Below, one piece after another: positions 14,524 through 24,690 of a stretch of DNA of 64,000 bases; positions within the stretch are counted from its first letter, which is position 1; each line of letters starts with the position of its first letter. Under the pieces are notes generated by a model, which was given only the letters and a program-made list of their open reading frames with translations, had not been told where the DNA came from and did no database searches. The stretch lies in sequence record MG383452; one strand, 5' to 3'. The stretch comes from Escherichia phage FEC14. A program made the position numbers and the translations under genes.

Positions 14524-14973
14524 TCAGAAACGGGTATCGCTGACCGTTCTGTATCGCACACCCTGAAACTGTTTAGCGAGTTTAACAAATTCCATCGCTG
14601 GCAAATCAACTTTGTAGACCTTCATGCGCTGTTTGCCGTCCATGTTCAACGCAGCGACAAATCGGTGAGACCCGTCAACAACGTAATTGTCAGAAGACAC
14701 CCAAACTCGACCCATGGGCTTCTTATTTCTGATCTGCTTCATAATCTTCCAGACCTTCATTTTATTGATTTCGTTCTGGGTAAGACGAAGCATTTTGATG
14801 GGCACTTGCGCAGCATCTATGGACACGCCGTTGTCTTCAAGATATTTGTGAAAATCTTCTTGTTTGTCGGCATCGATTTGCGGCATAGAAGAACGAGAAA
14901 GCCCGAGGTTCCCAACAGGAATCCTCAGGCCATTTATGATATTCATCCAGTCAATAAAGGATGTAAGGAACAT
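14524..14973 (-). CDS. hypothetical protein (149 aa)
   Basis: Minus-strand ORF. Confidence 0.45.
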   Translation of the reverse strand: MFLTSFIDWMNIINGLRIPVGNLGLSRSSMPQIDADKQEDFHKYLEDNGVSIDAAQVPIKMLRLTQNEINKMKVWKIMKQIRNKKPMGRVWVSSDNYVVDGSHRFVAALNMDGKQRMKVYKVDLPAMEFVKLAKQFQGVRYRTVSDTRF

Positions 14974-16270: not shown

Positions 16271-16603
16271 TTACTTGCGCAGGGCAACCACGTATTCGGC
16301 AAGTTCACCCATGGTCGGGTCGTCGCCTTTACCGCCCAGCCAGCCATCAGAGATCTCGACATTGAACTCTTCTTCTAGTTCCATGACGATTTCGATGGCA
16401 TCAAGATCGTCGCCGCCGAGGTCTTTCTTGGTGCGGAGGCCAGCCAGTTTATCCAGGGCGTCATTCATAATCACTTCCGCGTCGACGATGCCTTTGATGC
16501 TGCTCTTGTCTTCGTCACTGACTTCCAGGTTCAGATTGTCAGTGGCGTACTGAGCCAGGTGACGCATTACTTCAACATAAGTTGGTTTGTTTGACATAAG
16601 CAT
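16271..16603 (-). CDS. acyl-carrier-protein-like protein with Asp in place of the phosphopantetheine-attachment Ser
   Basis: DLGGDDLDAIEIVMELEEEFNVEISD aligns with E. coli ACP [26 protein letters not shown]; the conserved Ser is Asp here. Confidence 0.6.
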   Translation of the reverse strand: MLMSNKPTYVEVMRHLAQYATDNLNLEVSDEDKSSIKGIVDAEVIMNDALDKLAGLRTKKDLGGDDLDAIEIVMELEEEFNVEISDGWLGGKGDDPTMGELAEYVVALRK

Positions 16604-16606
16604 ATC

Positions 16607-16626
16607 TCAAAATGAAGGCGGGTTTC
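16607..16626 (-). terminator. hairpin GGCGGG-loop-CCCGCC 3' of the vWA gene
   Basis: Inverted repeat between the vWA stop and the ACP-like start. Confidence 0.4.
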
Positions 16627-16640
16627 CCCGCCAGTTGAAT

Positions 16641-18893
16641 TTAGATTTTGACTTCTTTTTCAGCCAGTTCGGCAGTGACAGTGTATTTCACCCCATCAAC
16701 TTCCACATCCATAGTGGATTCTTCCAAATCCAGGTCGGTAAACCAACCATGGCCTGCAACAATCCCATAAACTACCTTGGACAGCGTTTTGTTCAGAGAT
16801 CGAACTTCGTTGATAGCTGCTTTTGCTGCATCACCAATCCAACTTTCGATCAGCTTTTTCTGAGTCTCTTCCGGTACGCTGGTGATCATCGGCGATTTAA
16901 CAAACGCATTGTATTCGGCCAGGGCATTAGCGATCAGCTGATCAGCGACATTCAGTTTTTTACCGTCCGTCTGTTTTTTGATAACAGACGCGATGCTCGG
17001 CAGTGAAGATGCGCCTTTGATTTTCACATTCAATTCACGACTCATATAGACATCGGTTGATTCTACAGAAGAAGTCTTCGGTGAAAATCCATAGTCGCGA
17101 ATGCCGTTTGCTGACAGGAAATCAGCCGCTTCTTTGCCATATTTTGAAGCCAGACCAGTAGCGTTGCCTTTGCCAACCAGTTCATCACGGTAGAATTTCA
17201 GAACTTTTTGCTTTGCCTTCAATGCTTCACGGCGCACATTGTCTGCAAAGAATTCAGCAGCACTGATATTCTTTGTCATGGCGCGGTTAACCATTGGGAC
17301 ACTTTCCAGATTTACAATGAAGACTTCCGGCCCACCAAACACATGAACACCCATGGCAGTCAAATCCTGTGCCACCTTAGCCCGAATAATCGGAGAATCT
17401 GCAGTGATAGGCATTGTTTTCAGGTTGATGATACCATCCTTGACAATGGTGTAATTGCGATAACGCCAGGTTCCCAGCTCTTCAGGAAGTTCATATTTCT
17501 TCTGTACAAACTCAGGCACAACAACCGTTCCGTGTTGAACTGTCTGCACACTGATGTTAGGACGTTCTGAATTGTAGACCAAATTGCTGATCGGGACAAT
17601 CCCTTTATCATCTGCTGGATTGAATTCGGGGGTCCAATCTTCGTGCTCGGCCAGTTTGAGCGCCAGGGCTTTACGCTCTTCTTTAGAAGTCGCATTCGCA
17701 ATCTCTTCGGCCAACTTGTCTTCGGTGTCATCAACTTTCTGTACAGTACCGCGCCCAATGCTCTTGTAAGAGAATAGCGGATGCTTAGTGACAATAGAGA
17801 CATCTGCTTCAGCCAGATACGTCAGAACATCAACAATGGTGGTGGCGTCTTCAGCCGGAACCATATTATAATCGATGCCATCAACTCCTCGCAGAGATTC
17901 GTCTACGATAGCCTGGGTCAGATCGACTTTGATGTTGGAATAGTCCTGCTTGGTGAAACAGTTGCTGTATTGTTTGATGAAGCGGACGTCACCCGTTTTC
18001 TTCAGCGCAGCCCAAACCAAATCTGCGTCCATGGTATACACGCCGTAAAATGCCAGCACGTATGCCGCTTGGATGTCTGCCAGATTATCCAGCTGGTCGA
18101 TCATGTTGGGGTTTACAACCCACAGCTGAGAAACGCTTTCAGGGATGCTGACGTGGCCAATAGGGTGCTCTTCATCAGGATGCACAGCTAAAACAGTCGC
18201 CACGCCATTTTCAACATAAATGGCATGGGTGTAAACCAGGGGAACATCGACCACCACTTTCGGTGAAGAAGTTTTTAGCACGTTTTCCAATTCGGTCTGA
18301 TATTCATTCTGGCCTTCGGCGAATACGTGGGTCGCACCAGAACGTTCTGCCATTAGCGCCAGCAGTTCGCGATTACAATACCAACCGTATTCGATGAAGG
18401 TAATGTTATCAAACGCTTTGGGCAGTACTTCAGCGGCATCCAGGATTTCATTAGAACGCCAGCAGTTGTCATATCCGTCAGTCATGAATGCCAGGTTATT
18501 AACATAACCAGGTTTATTCAGGCTAATGGCAGTTTCCGCAGCCAATTTCAGCGGCTCAACAAAACCAGTACAACCAGAAGGCTTCAGGAAACGGTCAATT
18601 AGATTATTGATCTCAGTGAGATCAGTTGCACTGTTAATCTGACGTCCGGCAAATACCGTTCCGAAATCACCGCGAGATGAAAAGTAAAGGATGCTCACAG
18701 TATCTTCCGGTTTCACCAGGGAAGGCAGGTTCTCCTTCAGATGCTTACGGACTTCTGGAAGTGAACGATACATGGAACCGGAGATATCCACAACGATTAC
18801 ATGGTTAGACGGCGCGACGGTCGCAACCGCATTCTTAAATGTTAATGATTCAATCATCGTTATTACCTTCTTTAGTGGTATGGACGGCTTCAC
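16641..18893 (-). CDS. von Willebrand factor A (vWA) domain protein (about 740 aa)
   Basis: N-terminal MIDAS-type motif VIVVDISGSM plus downstream Thr/Asp positions typical of vWA; likely true start at MIESL (about 18857), coupled to an upstream small ORF. Confidence 0.65.
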   Translation of the reverse strand: MKPSIPLKKVITMIESLTFKNAVATVAPSNHVIVVDISGSMYRSLPEVRKHLKENLPSLVKPEDTVSILYFSSRGDFGTVFAGRQINSATDLTEINNLIDRFLKPSGCTGFVEPLKLAAETAISLNKPGYVNNLAFMTDGYDNCWRSNEILDAAEVLPKAFDNITFIEYGWYCNRELLALMAERSGATHVFAEGQNEYQTELENVLKTSSPKVVVDVPLVYTHAIYVENGVATVLAVHPDEEHPIGHVSIPESVSQLWVVNPNMIDQLDNLADIQAAYVLAFYGVYTMDADLVWAALKKTGDVRFIKQYSNCFTKQDYSNIKVDLTQAIVDESLRGVDGIDYNMVPAEDATTIVDVLTYLAEADVSIVTKHPLFSYKSIGRGTVQKVDDTEDKLAEEIANATSKEERKALALKLAEHEDWTPEFNPADDKGIVPISNLVYNSERPNISVQTVQHGTVVVPEFVQKKYELPEELGTWRYRNYTIVKDGIINLKTMPITADSPIIRAKVAQDLTAMGVHVFGGPEVFIVNLESVPMVNRAMTKNISAAEFFADNVRREALKAKQKVLKFYRDELVGKGNATGLASKYGKEAADFLSANGIRDYGFSPKTSSVESTDVYMSRELNVKIKGASSLPSIASVIKKQTDGKKLNVADQLIANALAEYNAFVKSPMITSVPEETQKKLIESWIGDAAKAAINEVRSLNKTLSKVVYGIVAGHGWFTDLDLEESTMDVEVDGVKYTVTAELAEKEVKI

Positions 18894-19020
18894 CTTCCGG
18901 CTTCGCCAGCATGTGTTCTATGAATTCGCGATTAGTTTCAATCTGTTGGATTAAAACTTCGCTGGGTTTAAACTGTGAGTCAAGAGAGTCAACTCCTGAA
19001 CGCAAAAATGGTTTGGTCAT
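18856..19020 (-). CDS. small ORF (about 55 aa) whose stop overlaps the vWA start (ATGA); not in the supplied track
   Basis: Hand translation MTKPFLRSGVDSLDSQFKPSEV...; boundaries approximate. Confidence 0.3.
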
Positions 19021-19021
19021 A

Positions 19022-19381
19022 TCAATTCCCTTTCACTTCCATGACACCAGAAATATTCTTCAGGGCTTCACGGACTTCCGACGCCTTATCTTTCTTTACA
19101 ATCACAACAATGAAAGAAAAGTTCTTTTTCTTACGCCAATTCTTGAAATGAGTGACCAACTGGATATCTTTCTCTTCAGCACCACTTTCTCCAGCTACAG
19201 GGATATAAACTGTGCCTGACTCAATTACGACATCAGCATCGTCTGGAATATTTTCATCGAGTTCTTCACGGTATTCTCCATTAACTTTGACGCAATGATC
19301 ATCGTGCCAAGCACCCTTTTCCCAATATTCGTCATCGTTATAGTAGGCGTTGAATTCAACACCTTTCATTTTTACGGACAT
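19022..19381 (-). CDS. hypothetical acidic protein (119 aa)
   Basis: Minus-strand ORF. Confidence 0.45.
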   Translation of the reverse strand: MSVKMKGVEFNAYYNDDEYWEKGAWHDDHCVKVNGEYREELDENIPDDADVVIESGTVYIPVAGESGAEEKDIQLVTHFKNWRKKKNFSFIVVIVKKDKASEVREALKNISGVMEVKGN

Positions 19382-19481
19382 GATTTCCTCGCTTTACAAT
19401 TGGACCATTATACCTTGGCTTGTTAATTGAAACGCCCAGCAATTTGCCGGACGTTATTGATTTTGAAAGACTTTTGAAGAA

Positions 19482-21301: not shown

Positions 21302-23320
21302 TTAGAAGATGACTTTTACAGTACGGTTAAACGCGCCGGACACTTTGACGAACACGTGGTTGCGTTGCGTCGTTGAGAATCCCAGACCGGACAGTTGGTT
21401 TTCATTCGGCTGGACTTTCATTTTACTACCCAACATTTCAAAAACCTTACGATGTTTATCCAGTTCCGGCTTCAGATATTCGTTGTAGAAACCACGAGTA
21501 CCTTCAGGATTAGCACAGCCTTCAAGAATGAAGAACACATGCTTGTTACCAGTTTGCTCCCCATCCCAATGGTTTGGTGAATTCAGAACCAGCTGTACTT
21601 TCTGGAAGGTCGCAGTCTTGATACCCCAAACTTCTTTAGACTTATCAACATTAGCCAGTTCGGACTTAATGCTAACGACTTGTTTGTCTTTAACAGTCAG
21701 GATGACTGCAGTGATACGCCCCTGATCTTTCAGGCCAGGATGGCTGAAACGATGCGTTGCGCCTTTGTATTCTACTTCGACTTCAAACCCTTCGTCGATC
21801 TTTTCACGTTGATTGTAGTTGTGGATTTCGAAACGGTATTCACCATCGCGCAGCTTGCTTTCATCTGTAAAGATGATATTTTCCACCGGAGCGCGGTTTG
21901 GATCAATACCATCCATACCGTTCATATCGATATCCAGATGGGCACCTGTCATAGAGCGACGATCACGGAAGTACACGTGCTCCATATTGTTAAAGAACAT
22001 ATGAAGATCGAGGTCGTCGTTATTGTGCCACGCCAAGGAAACGCGCAGATACCCGTCAACTTTACCACCAGCAGCCTTTACACGTTCTTTAATGGAATCG
22101 GTCACTTCACCGTTGTAAGACCAGGAGAACCCGTTGTTCCACTTGAACAGGTTAGGCGCATCTGGGTTCGCCGGAGCAACCAGGGACATCAGGTTGCTAG
22201 TATGAGAATTCTCTACAAGCACTTCCATTGAATGCGCTTTTGGCAGAACATTGCTCAGGAAATCATCAACGCTGATCTCTTCAACTTTTTCCAGGGACTT
22301 GGTCGGAGTTTTCACTTCGGCGGCCAGCTGTGCAAACGGATCCATCGCTTTCTGAGCAGCCAGATCTGCGAACAGAACGTTGTTGATTGTCAGATCATCG
22401 TAAACCGCATAACGACGCGCCAGTGAGTCTTCCAAACCCAGAGCAATAACTTCTTTCTGAGCGTTTTCGATCATGGATTTTGAAACCAGCGCTGTCGGAC
22501 GTTTGTAGTTCGCCGGAGCAACTTTGGATTCAAACGATTTAACAGCCTTTTCCAGTTCCACGCCTTCGCTGATATCTGTCAGCAGAGTGCCGATAACTGT
22601 GTTACGGATGCCGTGTGGAACATGATTGTTTGAACGGTATCCAGTATGCCATGCCCACAGAGAACGGGCTGATTCGGGGATTTGTTCATACGCTTTTTTG
22701 GTTTCAACAAATCCCTTCACTGCTGCTTTGTGTTCTGCGCCGCGATACAGAGAATTCTGGTCAATCAGTTCCAGAACGATTTCAGCTGATTCCAGAGTAA
22801 TTTCACGCAGACCGCGTTCAAACAATTCAATAGCCTGGCGGATTTCACCTTTTTTCGAAGCGATTGCGTCCGGACGCAGAACATAGCTACCCAGCAGGTC
22901 GGTGTGGAAGTGGTTGTAGGTGCGGACATTGCCGTCTTTCATTTCGTGATTCGACTCAACACCGACTTTCTTGGTATCGTTGAAGTACACGTCGACGATT
23001 ACGTGTTGCTTGACATACGCAGACAGCGCCGCAGCCACCACGTCATATTCATTACCCAGATCAATGTTGTCCCAGATAGAAATTACGTTCAGGTCGGAGT
23101 CGATGGTGATCACACCGCCGATGTTACGGATGAATTGTTTACAGCAGGTGCAGTCGTGCTCAGTACGCTCACGGTAGAGCGGGTTGGTACCAGCAGGGAA
23201 AGATGCCAGATACAGATCCCAAAGAGCATCTTTATCGATATTGGTCATGAACAGACCAGTTGCGGACATCGCCAGCACGTTGTTATTAACTGCCGTTGCG
23301 AAGGGTTTGAATTCTGCCAT
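21302..23320 (-). CDS. large uncharacterised protein (672 aa)
   Basis: Long uninterrupted minus-strand ORF; no family recognised by eye (no polymerase B, ligase or Walker motifs). Confidence 0.6.
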   Translation of the reverse strand: MAEFKPFATAVNNNVLAMSATGLFMTNIDKDALWDLYLASFPAGTNPLYRERTEHDCTCCKQFIRNIGGVITIDSDLNVISIWDNIDLGNEYDVVAAALSAYVKQHVIVDVYFNDTKKVGVESNHEMKDGNVRTYNHFHTDLLGSYVLRPDAIASKKGEIRQAIELFERGLREITLESAEIVLELIDQNSLYRGAEHKAAVKGFVETKKAYEQIPESARSLWAWHTGYRSNNHVPHGIRNTVIGTLLTDISEGVELEKAVKSFESKVAPANYKRPTALVSKSMIENAQKEVIALGLEDSLARRYAVYDDLTINNVLFADLAAQKAMDPFAQLAAEVKTPTKSLEKVEEISVDDFLSNVLPKAHSMEVLVENSHTSNLMSLVAPANPDAPNLFKWNNGFSWSYNGEVTDSIKERVKAAGGKVDGYLRVSLAWHNNDDLDLHMFFNNMEHVYFRDRRSMTGAHLDIDMNGMDGIDPNRAPVENIIFTDESKLRDGEYRFEIHNYNQREKIDEGFEVEVEYKGATHRFSHPGLKDQGRITAVILTVKDKQVVSIKSELANVDKSKEVWGIKTATFQKVQLVLNSPNHWDGEQTGNKHVFFILEGCANPEGTRGFYNEYLKPELDKHRKVFEMLGSKMKVQPNENQLSGLGFSTTQRNHVFVKVSGAFNRTVKVIF

Positions 23321-23433: not shown

Positions 23434-24690
23434 TTATTCAGGTTTCTTCAAACGATCTAATAAATTGACCGATCCGCGATTGAGGACAATTTCATCGCAT
23501 CGATTTTTGTATCTCCCGCCTCCATCATAACCGACCTTGCCGCGTGGCTTTTCCCCTCTCTCGATAGCCTCAACACAGCGGGTGTACTTGCTCAATTCAC
23601 AGAACATGTTCTCCAGCTGCATGACGTTCATGCACTGATCTTCCGGCGCTTCGGCTGACCAGAACTGCTCTTGGACATAACCATACTGAGCAAACAATTG
23701 ATACTGATGATCACGAACCCAGAATATGCATTCTTCATGAGTCATGCCGTCCTTATCCAGGAACATCAGGTCAATACCCGCACGGCAACCTGGACCAGCA
23801 ATAGTGAAATGATTCTCACTGAATGGATATTCATCGATGTATGTAAAATCAACCCAAATCTGGTATGCCAAGAATGGTCCAAGCCCCTCAATGTCGTCAT
23901 ACATCGCCTGGTAAACAGAGTCGGGACGGCTAAATTCCCTGAGGCGATCAAAGTAATGAGGGTGTTTGTTGACGAATGCCTTCAAAGAGCGAATGACTCG
24001 CATCGGCATGTATGGTTCCCAGCCTTCTATTTTGTATTCACCAGGATTATCTTCGGCCAGCTTCTTGGCAACCTTGTAATCCATTTCATCTATAACACCA
24101 CCCACCCGATGGACTTTTACCTTCATGCCGCCAAAGCGTTGCTCCTTATGGTTGACAACCAGTTCAGGGAAAGCTAGGCATTGTTTCAGACCGCCTGTAT
24201 TAAACGCATTGGTGAAAACTTTGCCACCTTTAGATTCGAATTCCTGAAGAACATCTCGACACCATTCAAGATTTATGTTTCCGAATTCTTCGATCGTCCA
24301 TGGACCACCCAAAGCCTGTATAGGTTCCCACATGTTGTACATGCGGAACAATACACAGTTAAACATTTTGTCAGATAGCGTGAGATCCTGATCGAGGATG
24401 ATATTATTGATCAAATTTCGAGACTGCCTATCGTGCTCTCTCCGGACGTTACAGAACTTGACCTGCCGTAGTATGGGATTATCCGTCCAAGGAGCAGGAA
24501 GACGCTGGACGTCCTTTCTCACGTGGATCTTATAACGCTCGCTCATCCATTCGTATGCGAGTTGTTTATGGAATGGGCTTAACATGGGATGTGCAGATTT
24601 AATTTTAACTTCCCGAACACCGCAATAAGGAATGTCACACGGTTTATCTTTCATGGTATCCTCTCTAGAATACAAAAAAACAGAGGCCAT
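23434..24690 (-). CDS. uncharacterised protein (418 aa)
   Basis: Long minus-strand ORF; no family recognised. Confidence 0.6.
   Translation of the reverse strand: MASVFLYSREDTMKDKPCDIPYCGVREVKIKSAHPMLSPFHKQLAYEWMSERYKIHVRKDVQRLPAPWTDNPILRQVKFCNVRREHDRQSRNLINNIILDQDLTLSDKMFNCVLFRMYNMWEPIQALGGPWTIEEFGNINLEWCRDVLQEFESKGGKVFTNAFNTGGLKQCLAFPELVVNHKEQRFGGMKVKVHRVGGVIDEMDYKVAKKLAEDNPGEYKIEGWEPYMPMRVIRSLKAFVNKHPHYFDRLREFSRPDSVYQAMYDDIEGLGPFLAYQIWVDFTYIDEYPFSENHFTIAGPGCRAGIDLMFLDKDGMTHEECIFWVRDHQYQLFAQYGYVQEQFWSAEAPEDQCMNVMQLENMFCELSKYTRCVEAIERGEKPRGKVGYDGGGRYKNRCDEIVLNRGSVNLLDRLKKPE

Follow-up and report, generated by a model that had tools for sequence, protein, structure and literature searches.

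The region analysed here is a stretch of 64,000 nucleotides (nt) from Escherichia phage FEC14 (record MG383452; this whole stretch is called the window, and positions are counted from its first letter). Its minus strand carries a gene for a protein in which a vWA domain with an intact MIDAS is joined to a large C-terminal module, and the start of this gene overlaps the stop of a small upstream open reading frame (ORF). The window belongs to a Kuttervirus (Ackermannviridae): about 3.3 kb around the vWA gene is 99.0% identical to Salmonella phage vB_STmST313_KE28 (KE28) and 98.6% identical to PhiSH19, and this region matches 221 phage records, almost all of them Ackermannviridae. The vWA gene, the small ORF, a gene for a protein of 119 amino acids (aa), a candidate promoter box and a terminator-like hairpin all lie on the minus strand (Table 1), inside a long minus-strand T4-like replication/recombination block with SbcCD, late sigma factor, RNase H, helicases, RegA, clamp and clamp loader. 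The structural module occupies 37–64 kb of the window, apart from the vWA gene.

An intact MIDAS in the vWA protein

The longest reading frame at the vWA locus spans 16641..18893 (750 aa, GTG start). The real start is the ATG at 18857 (MIESLTFKNAV..., 738 aa), since all 55 aligned homologues begin at this position, the coding sequence is annotated as 2217 nt in GenBank relatives, and a GAAGG Shine-Dalgarno sequence stands 8 nt upstream of it. The protein matches phrog_2426 with E=0 and 1265.6 bits (residues 1–738 on profile positions 2–736 of 736), it lies above the curated cut-off of Pfam VWA (31.1 vs 23.8 bits), and its DISGS motif occupies residues 24–28. An earlier note, made from the letters of this DNA alone, had described a protein of roughly 740 aa with such a MIDAS motif at its N-terminus, and a probable start, MIESL, overlapping the stop of an ORF of about 55 aa; this observation was confirmed in every particular, the ORF being 56 aa long and the overlap 8 nt.

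The full-length AlphaFold2 model, built on the 55 homologues, reached a predicted local distance difference test score (pLDDT) of 87.6 and a predicted template modelling score (pTM) of 0.71. In this confident model the vWA fold, whose absence the earlier note had named as grounds for dropping the assignment, is present as a Rossmann-like alpha/beta domain, and the site is complete, with the DxSxS motif joined by Thr and Asp from two other loops. The five residues D24, S26, S28, T97 and D127 are invariant in the 55 homologues, at identities down to 34%, and the model places them as canonical vWA domains do, with positions at the ends of beta1 and beta4 and in a loop between two helices. vWA domains generally bind an acidic side chain of a partner via Mg2+ or Mn2+. 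As the fold is real and the five MIDAS residues are invariant and canonically placed, alignment and model together make metal-dependent ligand binding by this domain a well-founded inference. The protein is acidic overall (isoelectric point, pI, 5.05), and by eye it has no hydrophobic N-terminal signal (MIESLTFKNAVATVAPSNH...), although a signal-peptide predictor was not run.

The vWA domain is packed against the beta-sandwich that follows it, as in the core motif of ArnB and Sec23/24, and residues 1–250, which comprise both parts, are structurally like ArnB, Sec23/24 and ITIH. Among the closest known proteins are ArnB of Sulfolobus acidocaldarius (PDB 8s05 and 5a8j; 'an archaeal ortholog of the Sec23/24 core motif') and 4fx5, an uncharacterised vWA protein from bacteria. 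However, ArnB has about 380 aa and the zinc-ribbon/FHA protein ArnA as its partner, whereas no counterpart of ArnA is conserved near the phage gene; the phage protein also adds a module of about 490 residues that ArnB lacks, and shares only 17% sequence identity with it. No zinc finger and no helical or gelsolin domains like those of Sec23/Sec24 were found in the phage protein, and unlike ITIH1/4 it has no VIT domain; the biology is entirely different in both cases. Neither the structure matches of the C-terminal part nor Pfam revealed a zinc-finger element of the ArnA or Sec23-24 type within the protein. A gene with a DUF3268 zinc finger stands 1.5 kb upstream in the window; in the flanks of other lineages this family falls outside the 25 commonest Pfam families.

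Table 1. Coordinates of the vWA gene, its predicted domains and the associated features in the window
Feature	Position	Strand	Remarks
vWA gene, 738 aa	16641..18857 (ATG 18857, stop 16641-16643)	-	PHROG 2426 over full length; 2217-nt coding sequence in relatives
vWA (Rossmann-like alpha/beta) domain, residues 1-195	18273..18857	-	
MIDAS DxSxS motif, D24-I-S26-G-S28	18774..18788	-	T97 and D127 complete the site
Predicted five-stranded beta-sandwich after the vWA domain, residues ~196-249	18111..18272	-	
Predicted phage-specific C-terminal module, residues ~250-738	16644..18110	-	mixed helical and beta subdomains; basic stretch 521-705
Stop/start overlap of small ORF and vWA gene, ATGATTGA	18850..18857	-	8 nt; identical in 6/6 Ackermannviridae loci
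Small ORF, 56 aa	18850..19020	-	acidic, pI 4.8; Ackermannviridae-specific; phrog_8656, E=4e-40
119-aa gene (phrog_4254)	19022..19381	-	ends 1 nt before the small ORF
TATAAT box, candidate promoter	19407..19412	-	25 nt upstream of the ATG of the 119-aa gene
GC-rich hairpin then T-run, terminator-like (GGCGGGGAAACCCGCC TTCATTTTGA)	16617..16632	-	between the vWA stop and the acyl carrier protein gene

A C-terminal module without a characterised relative

Residues 196–738 were modelled separately from an alignment of 16 sequences (pLDDT 87.4, pTM 0.74). A Foldseek search with this model against predicted viral structures gave four significant matches, all of them uncharacterised members of the vWA family. 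The 60 best structure matches listed for the C-terminal model contained neither Ku nor a Sec23/24 chain. Pfam, applied to 55 members of the family at E<=1, returned vWA families and noise only, such as PF21769 vRNAP_dom in 3 of the 55 at E>=0.03. Searches of the PDB by phmmer and profile gave vWA domains or noise and nothing for the C-terminal module, and the same was true of NCBIfam and PADLOC. Because structure, Pfam and PDB searches yielded only the protein's own family, vWA domains or noise, residues ~250–738 are predicted to form a conserved, confidently folded module without a characterised relative. The domain search proposed in the earlier note for this part recovered structures of the same family and no characterised domain. 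The invariant polar residues of the module include R432, N434, S436, N468, D474, K551, D602 and Y604, and residues 521–705 are basic, with a pI above 9, in an otherwise acidic protein.

The vWA family is widespread in large phages

By tblastn the vWA family was found in 502 phage records, which include Ackermannviridae, Slopekvirus (KP27, Miro), T4-like phages of Citrobacter and Cronobacter, Shewanella phage Thanatos, Bacillus phage PBS1 and phages of Rhizobium. The C-terminal region alone, searched with phmmer against 1.84 billion cluster representatives (clusters at 50% identity), matched 1,021 clusters, 816 of them at E<=1e-10. Nearly all of these have 680–820 aa, and the match starts at residue ~200–320; as these values are nearly uniform, the family has a single fixed architecture. 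It occurs mostly in large and jumbo myoviruses. Homologues in IMG/VR lie on contigs of up to 512 kb, which places the family in jumbo phages too; on the jumbo-phage contigs of 300–512 kb they are about 33% identical and of the same length.

Among Kutterviruses with different tailspikes the protein is 99% conserved, and the gene is one of the 114 core genes of Vi01-like phages (PMC10892097). With 502 records, approximately 1,000 clusters and a place in this core set, phage vWA proteins of this kind are not the rarity that the earlier note had taken them for. The gene itself is already known: it has been annotated since 2012, its product is 99% identical to database entries, and it belongs to a named PHROG. 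Two-thirds of the protein, however, have no characterised relative.

The vWA gene has no conserved partner gene

MoxR-type AAA+ ATPases and vWA proteins form pairs of chaperone and cochaperone, such as RavA-ViaA, NorQ-NorD, CbbQ-CbbO and BchI-BchD/CobS-CobT, and a viral pair for tail assembly in Acidianus two-tailed virus (ATV). MoxR-vWA pairs have also been described in jumbo phages (PMC7824862). Such pairs are defined by an adjacent MoxR ATPase gene, whereas the annotation shows no such gene across about 50 kb of KE28, the matching genome, or 27 kb of phage aagejoakim; the C-terminal module of the phage protein is unrelated to them. We then clustered the ORFs within 5 kb of the vWA gene at 80 IMG/VR loci, which represent 29 lineages (vWA proteins below 60% identity), and no neighbour family occurred in more than 3 of the 29. 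Pfam was run on two genes each side at one locus per lineage, and none of these 111 flanking proteins had an AAA_3/AAA_5-type (MoxR) match, in agreement with the earlier note, which had seen no MoxR-type partner nearby. One flank holds a second, unrelated vWA protein.

The 111 proteins include scattered products of DNA-metabolism genes, among them PolB, DnaB/AAA_25, RecA, 5'-3' exonuclease, ligase, uracil-DNA glycosylase and homing endonucleases. In Shewanella phage Thanatos-1 the vWA homologue adjoins an ATP-dependent DNA ligase gene, which ends 9 nt before the vWA start; another homologue adjoins a Pif1/Dda helicase gene, with a ligase 2.6 kb away, and yet another adjoins an RNA ligase gene. 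As ligase accounts for 1 of the 111 flanking genes and no neighbour family exceeds 3 of the 29 lineages, these ligase and helicase neighbours do not form a conserved association. To judge from these neighbourhoods, the vWA gene stands alone and accompanies the early and replication regions in large phages.

The small ORF and its overlap with the vWA gene

Three lines of evidence, namely the match to phrog_8656, the presence in 208 phage records (tblastn) and conservation at the protein level, mark the small ORF as a real lineage-specific gene by sequence comparison. Seven sequences of 46–93% identity share 14 invariant columns, which include G9, D11, D14, P19, L23, Q26, R31, F33, E35, M37 and L38. 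The ORF is an annotated coding sequence in most relatives, including KE28, aagejoakim, Ag3 and May, and was missed in the annotation of Vi01, where it starts with TTG. The earlier note had called it unannotated, which does not hold for these relatives or for the PHROG families it has of its own; the lack of conservation in relatives which that note had set as a ground for refutation was not found.

The junction reads ...AAC GAT GAT TGA / ATG ATT GAA, with the vWA ATG inside the last codons of the small ORF. Its sequence, aacgATGATTGA, is identical in six loci from Kuttervirus, Agtrevirus, Limestonevirus, Taipeivirus and an unclassified Aglimvirinae phage. The conserved C-terminal codons of the small ORF double as Shine-Dalgarno sequence and start of the vWA gene. 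When six-frame ORFs in the ~7–8 kb around distant vWA homologues were searched with a profile hidden Markov model of the small ORF, no match reached an E-value below 0.5. Homologues in Slopekvirus, Thanatos, PBS1 and metagenomic lineages lack the small ORF beside them, and KP27 has an unrelated 106-aa gene. By these comparisons the small ORF is restricted to Ackermannviridae and does not serve the vWA family as a general partner. Moreover, two alleles of the small ORF (phrog_8656 and phrog_11447), which are 46–47% identical, occur in Kutterviruses beside vWA proteins that are 99.5% identical. In view of the lineage restriction, the divergent alleles and the double-duty codons, the evidence for a dedicated partnership of the two proteins is weak. 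In a blastn comparison with BPS5, DNA similarity does not set in until about 54 nt after the start of the small ORF, which suggests a mosaic boundary close to the 5' end of this ORF.

The earlier note had regarded the two genes as translationally coupled. The stop/start overlap is indeed conserved in relatives, but the vWA gene need not rely on translation of its upstream neighbour, since it has an independent Shine-Dalgarno sequence, GAAGG, of its own. Overlaps are also routine in this genome (about 10 of the 36 same-strand junctions in the KE28 table, 1–71 nt), and the RNA at the junction folds no more stably than shuffled sequence does (z=-0.5). Coupling is thus plausible and, because stop/start overlaps are common here, would be ordinary for this genome.

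A candidate transcription unit

The 119-aa gene is present or missing among close relatives, Vi01 and BPS5 being two that lack it. In Dickeya phage XF4 (Limestonevirus) it continues in frame through the small ORF as a single frame of 180 aa, which hints that the 119-aa and 56-aa proteins may act together. A conserved aagccaaggTATAATgg element, the TATAAT box of Table 1, precedes the first gene of the unit, and in Vi01, where the 119-aa gene is missing, it is kept before the small ORF. As it stands before whichever gene comes first, its position suggests one transcription unit comprising the 119-aa gene where present, the small ORF and the vWA gene. This element may be an early or middle promoter without a canonical -35 sequence. 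A T4-type late promoter, TATAAATA, occurs in two copies in the window, both distant and not above chance expectation. No Kuttervirus transcriptome was found in the literature.

The vWA protein in virions

The earlier note had also suggested virion proteomics as a check, and published data do detect the protein, at a low level. In virions of LIMEstone1, mass spectrometry identified ORF108, a 'vWa containing protein' of 81 kDa, by 6 peptides with 11.4% coverage (PMC3296691); it is 83% identical to the vWA protein of the window. The same table lists ligase, gp44, PhoH and rIIB with 1 peptide each, for which the authors propose co-injection or carry-over (PMC3296691). In virions of the Kuttervirus Sajous1, gp185, a 'VWA domain-containing protein', was represented by 1 spectrum (PMC10892097), as against 924 spectra for the capsid protein (PMC10892097). 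We conclude that the vWA protein is associated with virions in low copy number at most.

Genes surrounding the vWA operon

An acyl carrier protein gene (PP-binding, phrog_4154; 16271-16603, minus strand) lies directly downstream of the vWA gene, past the hairpin, and no acyl-ACP-related enzyme was seen among the immediate neighbours. On the other side, at 23434-24690 on the minus strand, is a gene for a 5-hydroxymethyl-2'-deoxyuridine (5-hmdU) DNA kinase (PF18723 HMUDK_hel, E=2.7e-84), which corresponds to gp67 of ViI in the pathway of thymidine hypermodification to 5-(2-aminoethoxy)methyl-2'-deoxyuridine (5-NeOmdU). Given this gene, the DNA of the phage is very probably hypermodified. The kinase gene lies 4.6 kb upstream of the vWA gene, and we therefore considered a link between the vWA protein and hypermodification, which was rejected. 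In the published reconstitution of the ViI pathway five other gene products were enough and the vWA protein goes unmentioned, which speaks against such a role, and most lineages with the vWA family show no such kinase neighbour.

Between the vWA operon and the kinase gene lies a gene for a conserved 672-aa protein (phrog_1735; 21302-23320, minus strand), which gave no sequence match in Pfam, NCBIfam, PADLOC or the PDB. This gene and the vWA gene are found together in Ackermannviridae-like lineages only. A 149-aa protein encoded at 14524-14973 on the minus strand has a ParB/sulfiredoxin-like DGSHR motif and no sequence match in Pfam or the PDB. The position-matched gene of a relative is annotated as 'unknown structural protein [Dickeya virus Limestone]'; if the two are the same, the 149-aa protein would be a packaged ParB-like protein encoded within the replication block.

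A motor-independent adaptor and the alternatives

Our favoured reading, which we hold tentatively and at somewhat less than even confidence, is that the vWA gene product is a cytoplasmic, stand-alone MIDAS adaptor of large tailed phages. The N-terminal domain with its complete MIDAS would clamp an acidic side chain of a partner through a bound Mg2+ or Mn2+ ion, while the beta-sandwich and the C-terminal module of about 490 residues would supply specificity and a second binding surface or function, and the adaptor would work without a dedicated AAA+ (MoxR) motor. It would be produced from the short operon (the optional 119-aa gene, the 56-aa gene and the vWA gene) within the replication/recombination block, the 8-nt overlap permitting ordinary coupling by reinitiation. 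The small amount carried by virions may play its part as the DNA enters or immediately afterwards, or its targets may be phage DNA or proteins associated with the replisome. In favour of this reading are the fixed two-part architecture, the strong conservation of the C-terminal module, the lack of a conserved neighbour or a MoxR gene, the surrounding genes, which serve mostly DNA replication and repair, and the virion peptides; the protein would act in or near the DNA-metabolism programme. Our confidence goes no further because what has been observed is the fold, the site, the architecture and the context. Several points weigh against this reading. The notion of an adaptor is a generic one, carried over by analogy from the vWA superfamily. 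The Sajous1 signal is weak, and the LIMEstone1 peptides, which stand beside those of the non-structural ligase, gp44 and PhoH, could reflect carry-over. The TATAAT box has no good -35 sequence and was not called by a consensus scan, so that its reading as a promoter is tentative. Finally, the invariant R, N, S, D, K and Y residues and the basic stretch could mean that the C-terminal module is an enzyme or a nucleic-acid binder instead of a binding scaffold. In a fuller form of this idea, which we consider unlikely, the C-terminal ~490 residues are a new module or fold combination, possibly catalytic or nucleic-acid-binding, invariably fused to a MIDAS vWA domain in about 1,000 clusters, and form a motor-independent system of large and jumbo phages; small amounts delivered by the virion would engage a conserved target as infection begins, such as the incoming modified DNA or a conserved host machine.

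The virion data also bear on two other explanations. The protein could be a minor structural or adhesive component of the tail or baseplate, whose vWA domain binds a host surface molecule as pilus tip adhesins do. The six LIMEstone1 peptides, a detection similar to that of proteins entered as 'unknown structural protein' in that study (PMC3296691), one GenBank record that calls a homologue 'minor tail protein', and the many pilus tip adhesins (PitA, PilB, SpaC, RrgA, Mfa5) among the close structural neighbours of the domain are consistent with it. However, the gene lies in the replication/recombination block and not in the structural module, its neighbours in other lineages are DNA-metabolism genes and not tail genes, and a single Sajous1 spectrum is little for a tail protein when the capsid protein gives 924. 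Tail adhesins usually vary with the host, yet Kutterviruses with different tailspikes share a protein that is 99% conserved, and phages of enterobacteria, Bacillus and Rhizobium all have the one architecture; we regard such a role as quite unlikely. The low level in virions would equally suit an anti-defence or host-takeover effector, packaged or made early, whose MIDAS sequesters a host protein (a host AAA+ such as RavA, or a component of a defence system) or which protects the hypermodified DNA on entry. The natural partner of RavA, ViaA, is itself a vWA protein. An early-looking position beside takeover and auxiliary genes (RNA polymerase ADP-ribosylase, superinfection exclusion protein), the restriction of the family to large phages with many counter-defence genes and the lack of a conserved phage-encoded partner, which fits a host target, speak for an effector. 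Nevertheless, no PADLOC model matched, the choice of RavA draws solely on the known RavA-ViaA pair, and counter-defence genes are usually sporadic and fast-evolving, whereas this is a slowly evolving core gene whose architecture is invariant in phages of very different hosts, which points to a conserved role internal to the phage; an effector of this kind therefore seems improbable to us.

The remaining two alternatives look to the layout of the protein and of its operon. Eukaryotic Ku70/Ku80 and INTS13/INTS14 begin with vWA domains followed by a large C-terminal region, as does the phage protein, and a Ku-like or other DNA-end or repair factor, combining the vWA domain with a DNA-binding core and working with ligases, would agree with the basic segment, with the DNA replication and repair genes common among the neighbours, and with the homologues that adjoin a DNA ligase, an RNA ligase or a helicase. 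The likeness is one of layout only: INTS14 was matched through its vWA domain only, the beta-barrel/ring fold of Ku was not detected in the C-terminal model, the protein is acidic overall, and neither ligase nor any other neighbour is conserved across the lineages. The version modelled on Ku and non-homologous end joining, which the ligase neighbours in Thanatos-1 and in metagenomic T4-like contigs had suggested, was rejected, as the matches of the C-terminal model contained no Ku and the ligase link is unconserved; a repair factor in the wider sense is very unlikely. The small ORF, in turn, could encode the MIDAS ligand or a dedicated partner, with its acidic C-terminus ...EGNNDD in the metal site and the overlap giving one-to-one synthesis, an idea which is compatible with the other readings. 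All Ackermannviridae examined keep the overlap and a C-terminal ...G-x-N/L-D-D, the small protein is acidic, and the in-frame fusion in a Limestonevirus suggests a functional unit with the 119-aa protein. Yet the C-terminal codons also encode the Shine-Dalgarno sequence and start of the vWA gene, so that no explanation at the protein level is needed, the small ORF is absent beside the vWA gene outside Ackermannviridae, and alleles so divergent beside nearly identical vWA proteins mean that the two genes do not co-evolve. We give this idea little credence.

As the finding of a sequence scan, the locus is ordinary: the gene was annotated, the overlap is routine and the proteomics had been published. 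Nevertheless, the vWA gene belongs to the core set of the Vi01-like phages, and these phages are candidates for biocontrol of Salmonella and E. coli O157. A perfect metal site without an AAA+ motor, joined to a large conserved module that lacks a structural relative, offers a well-defined starting point in the search for a new interaction between phage and host or within the phage.

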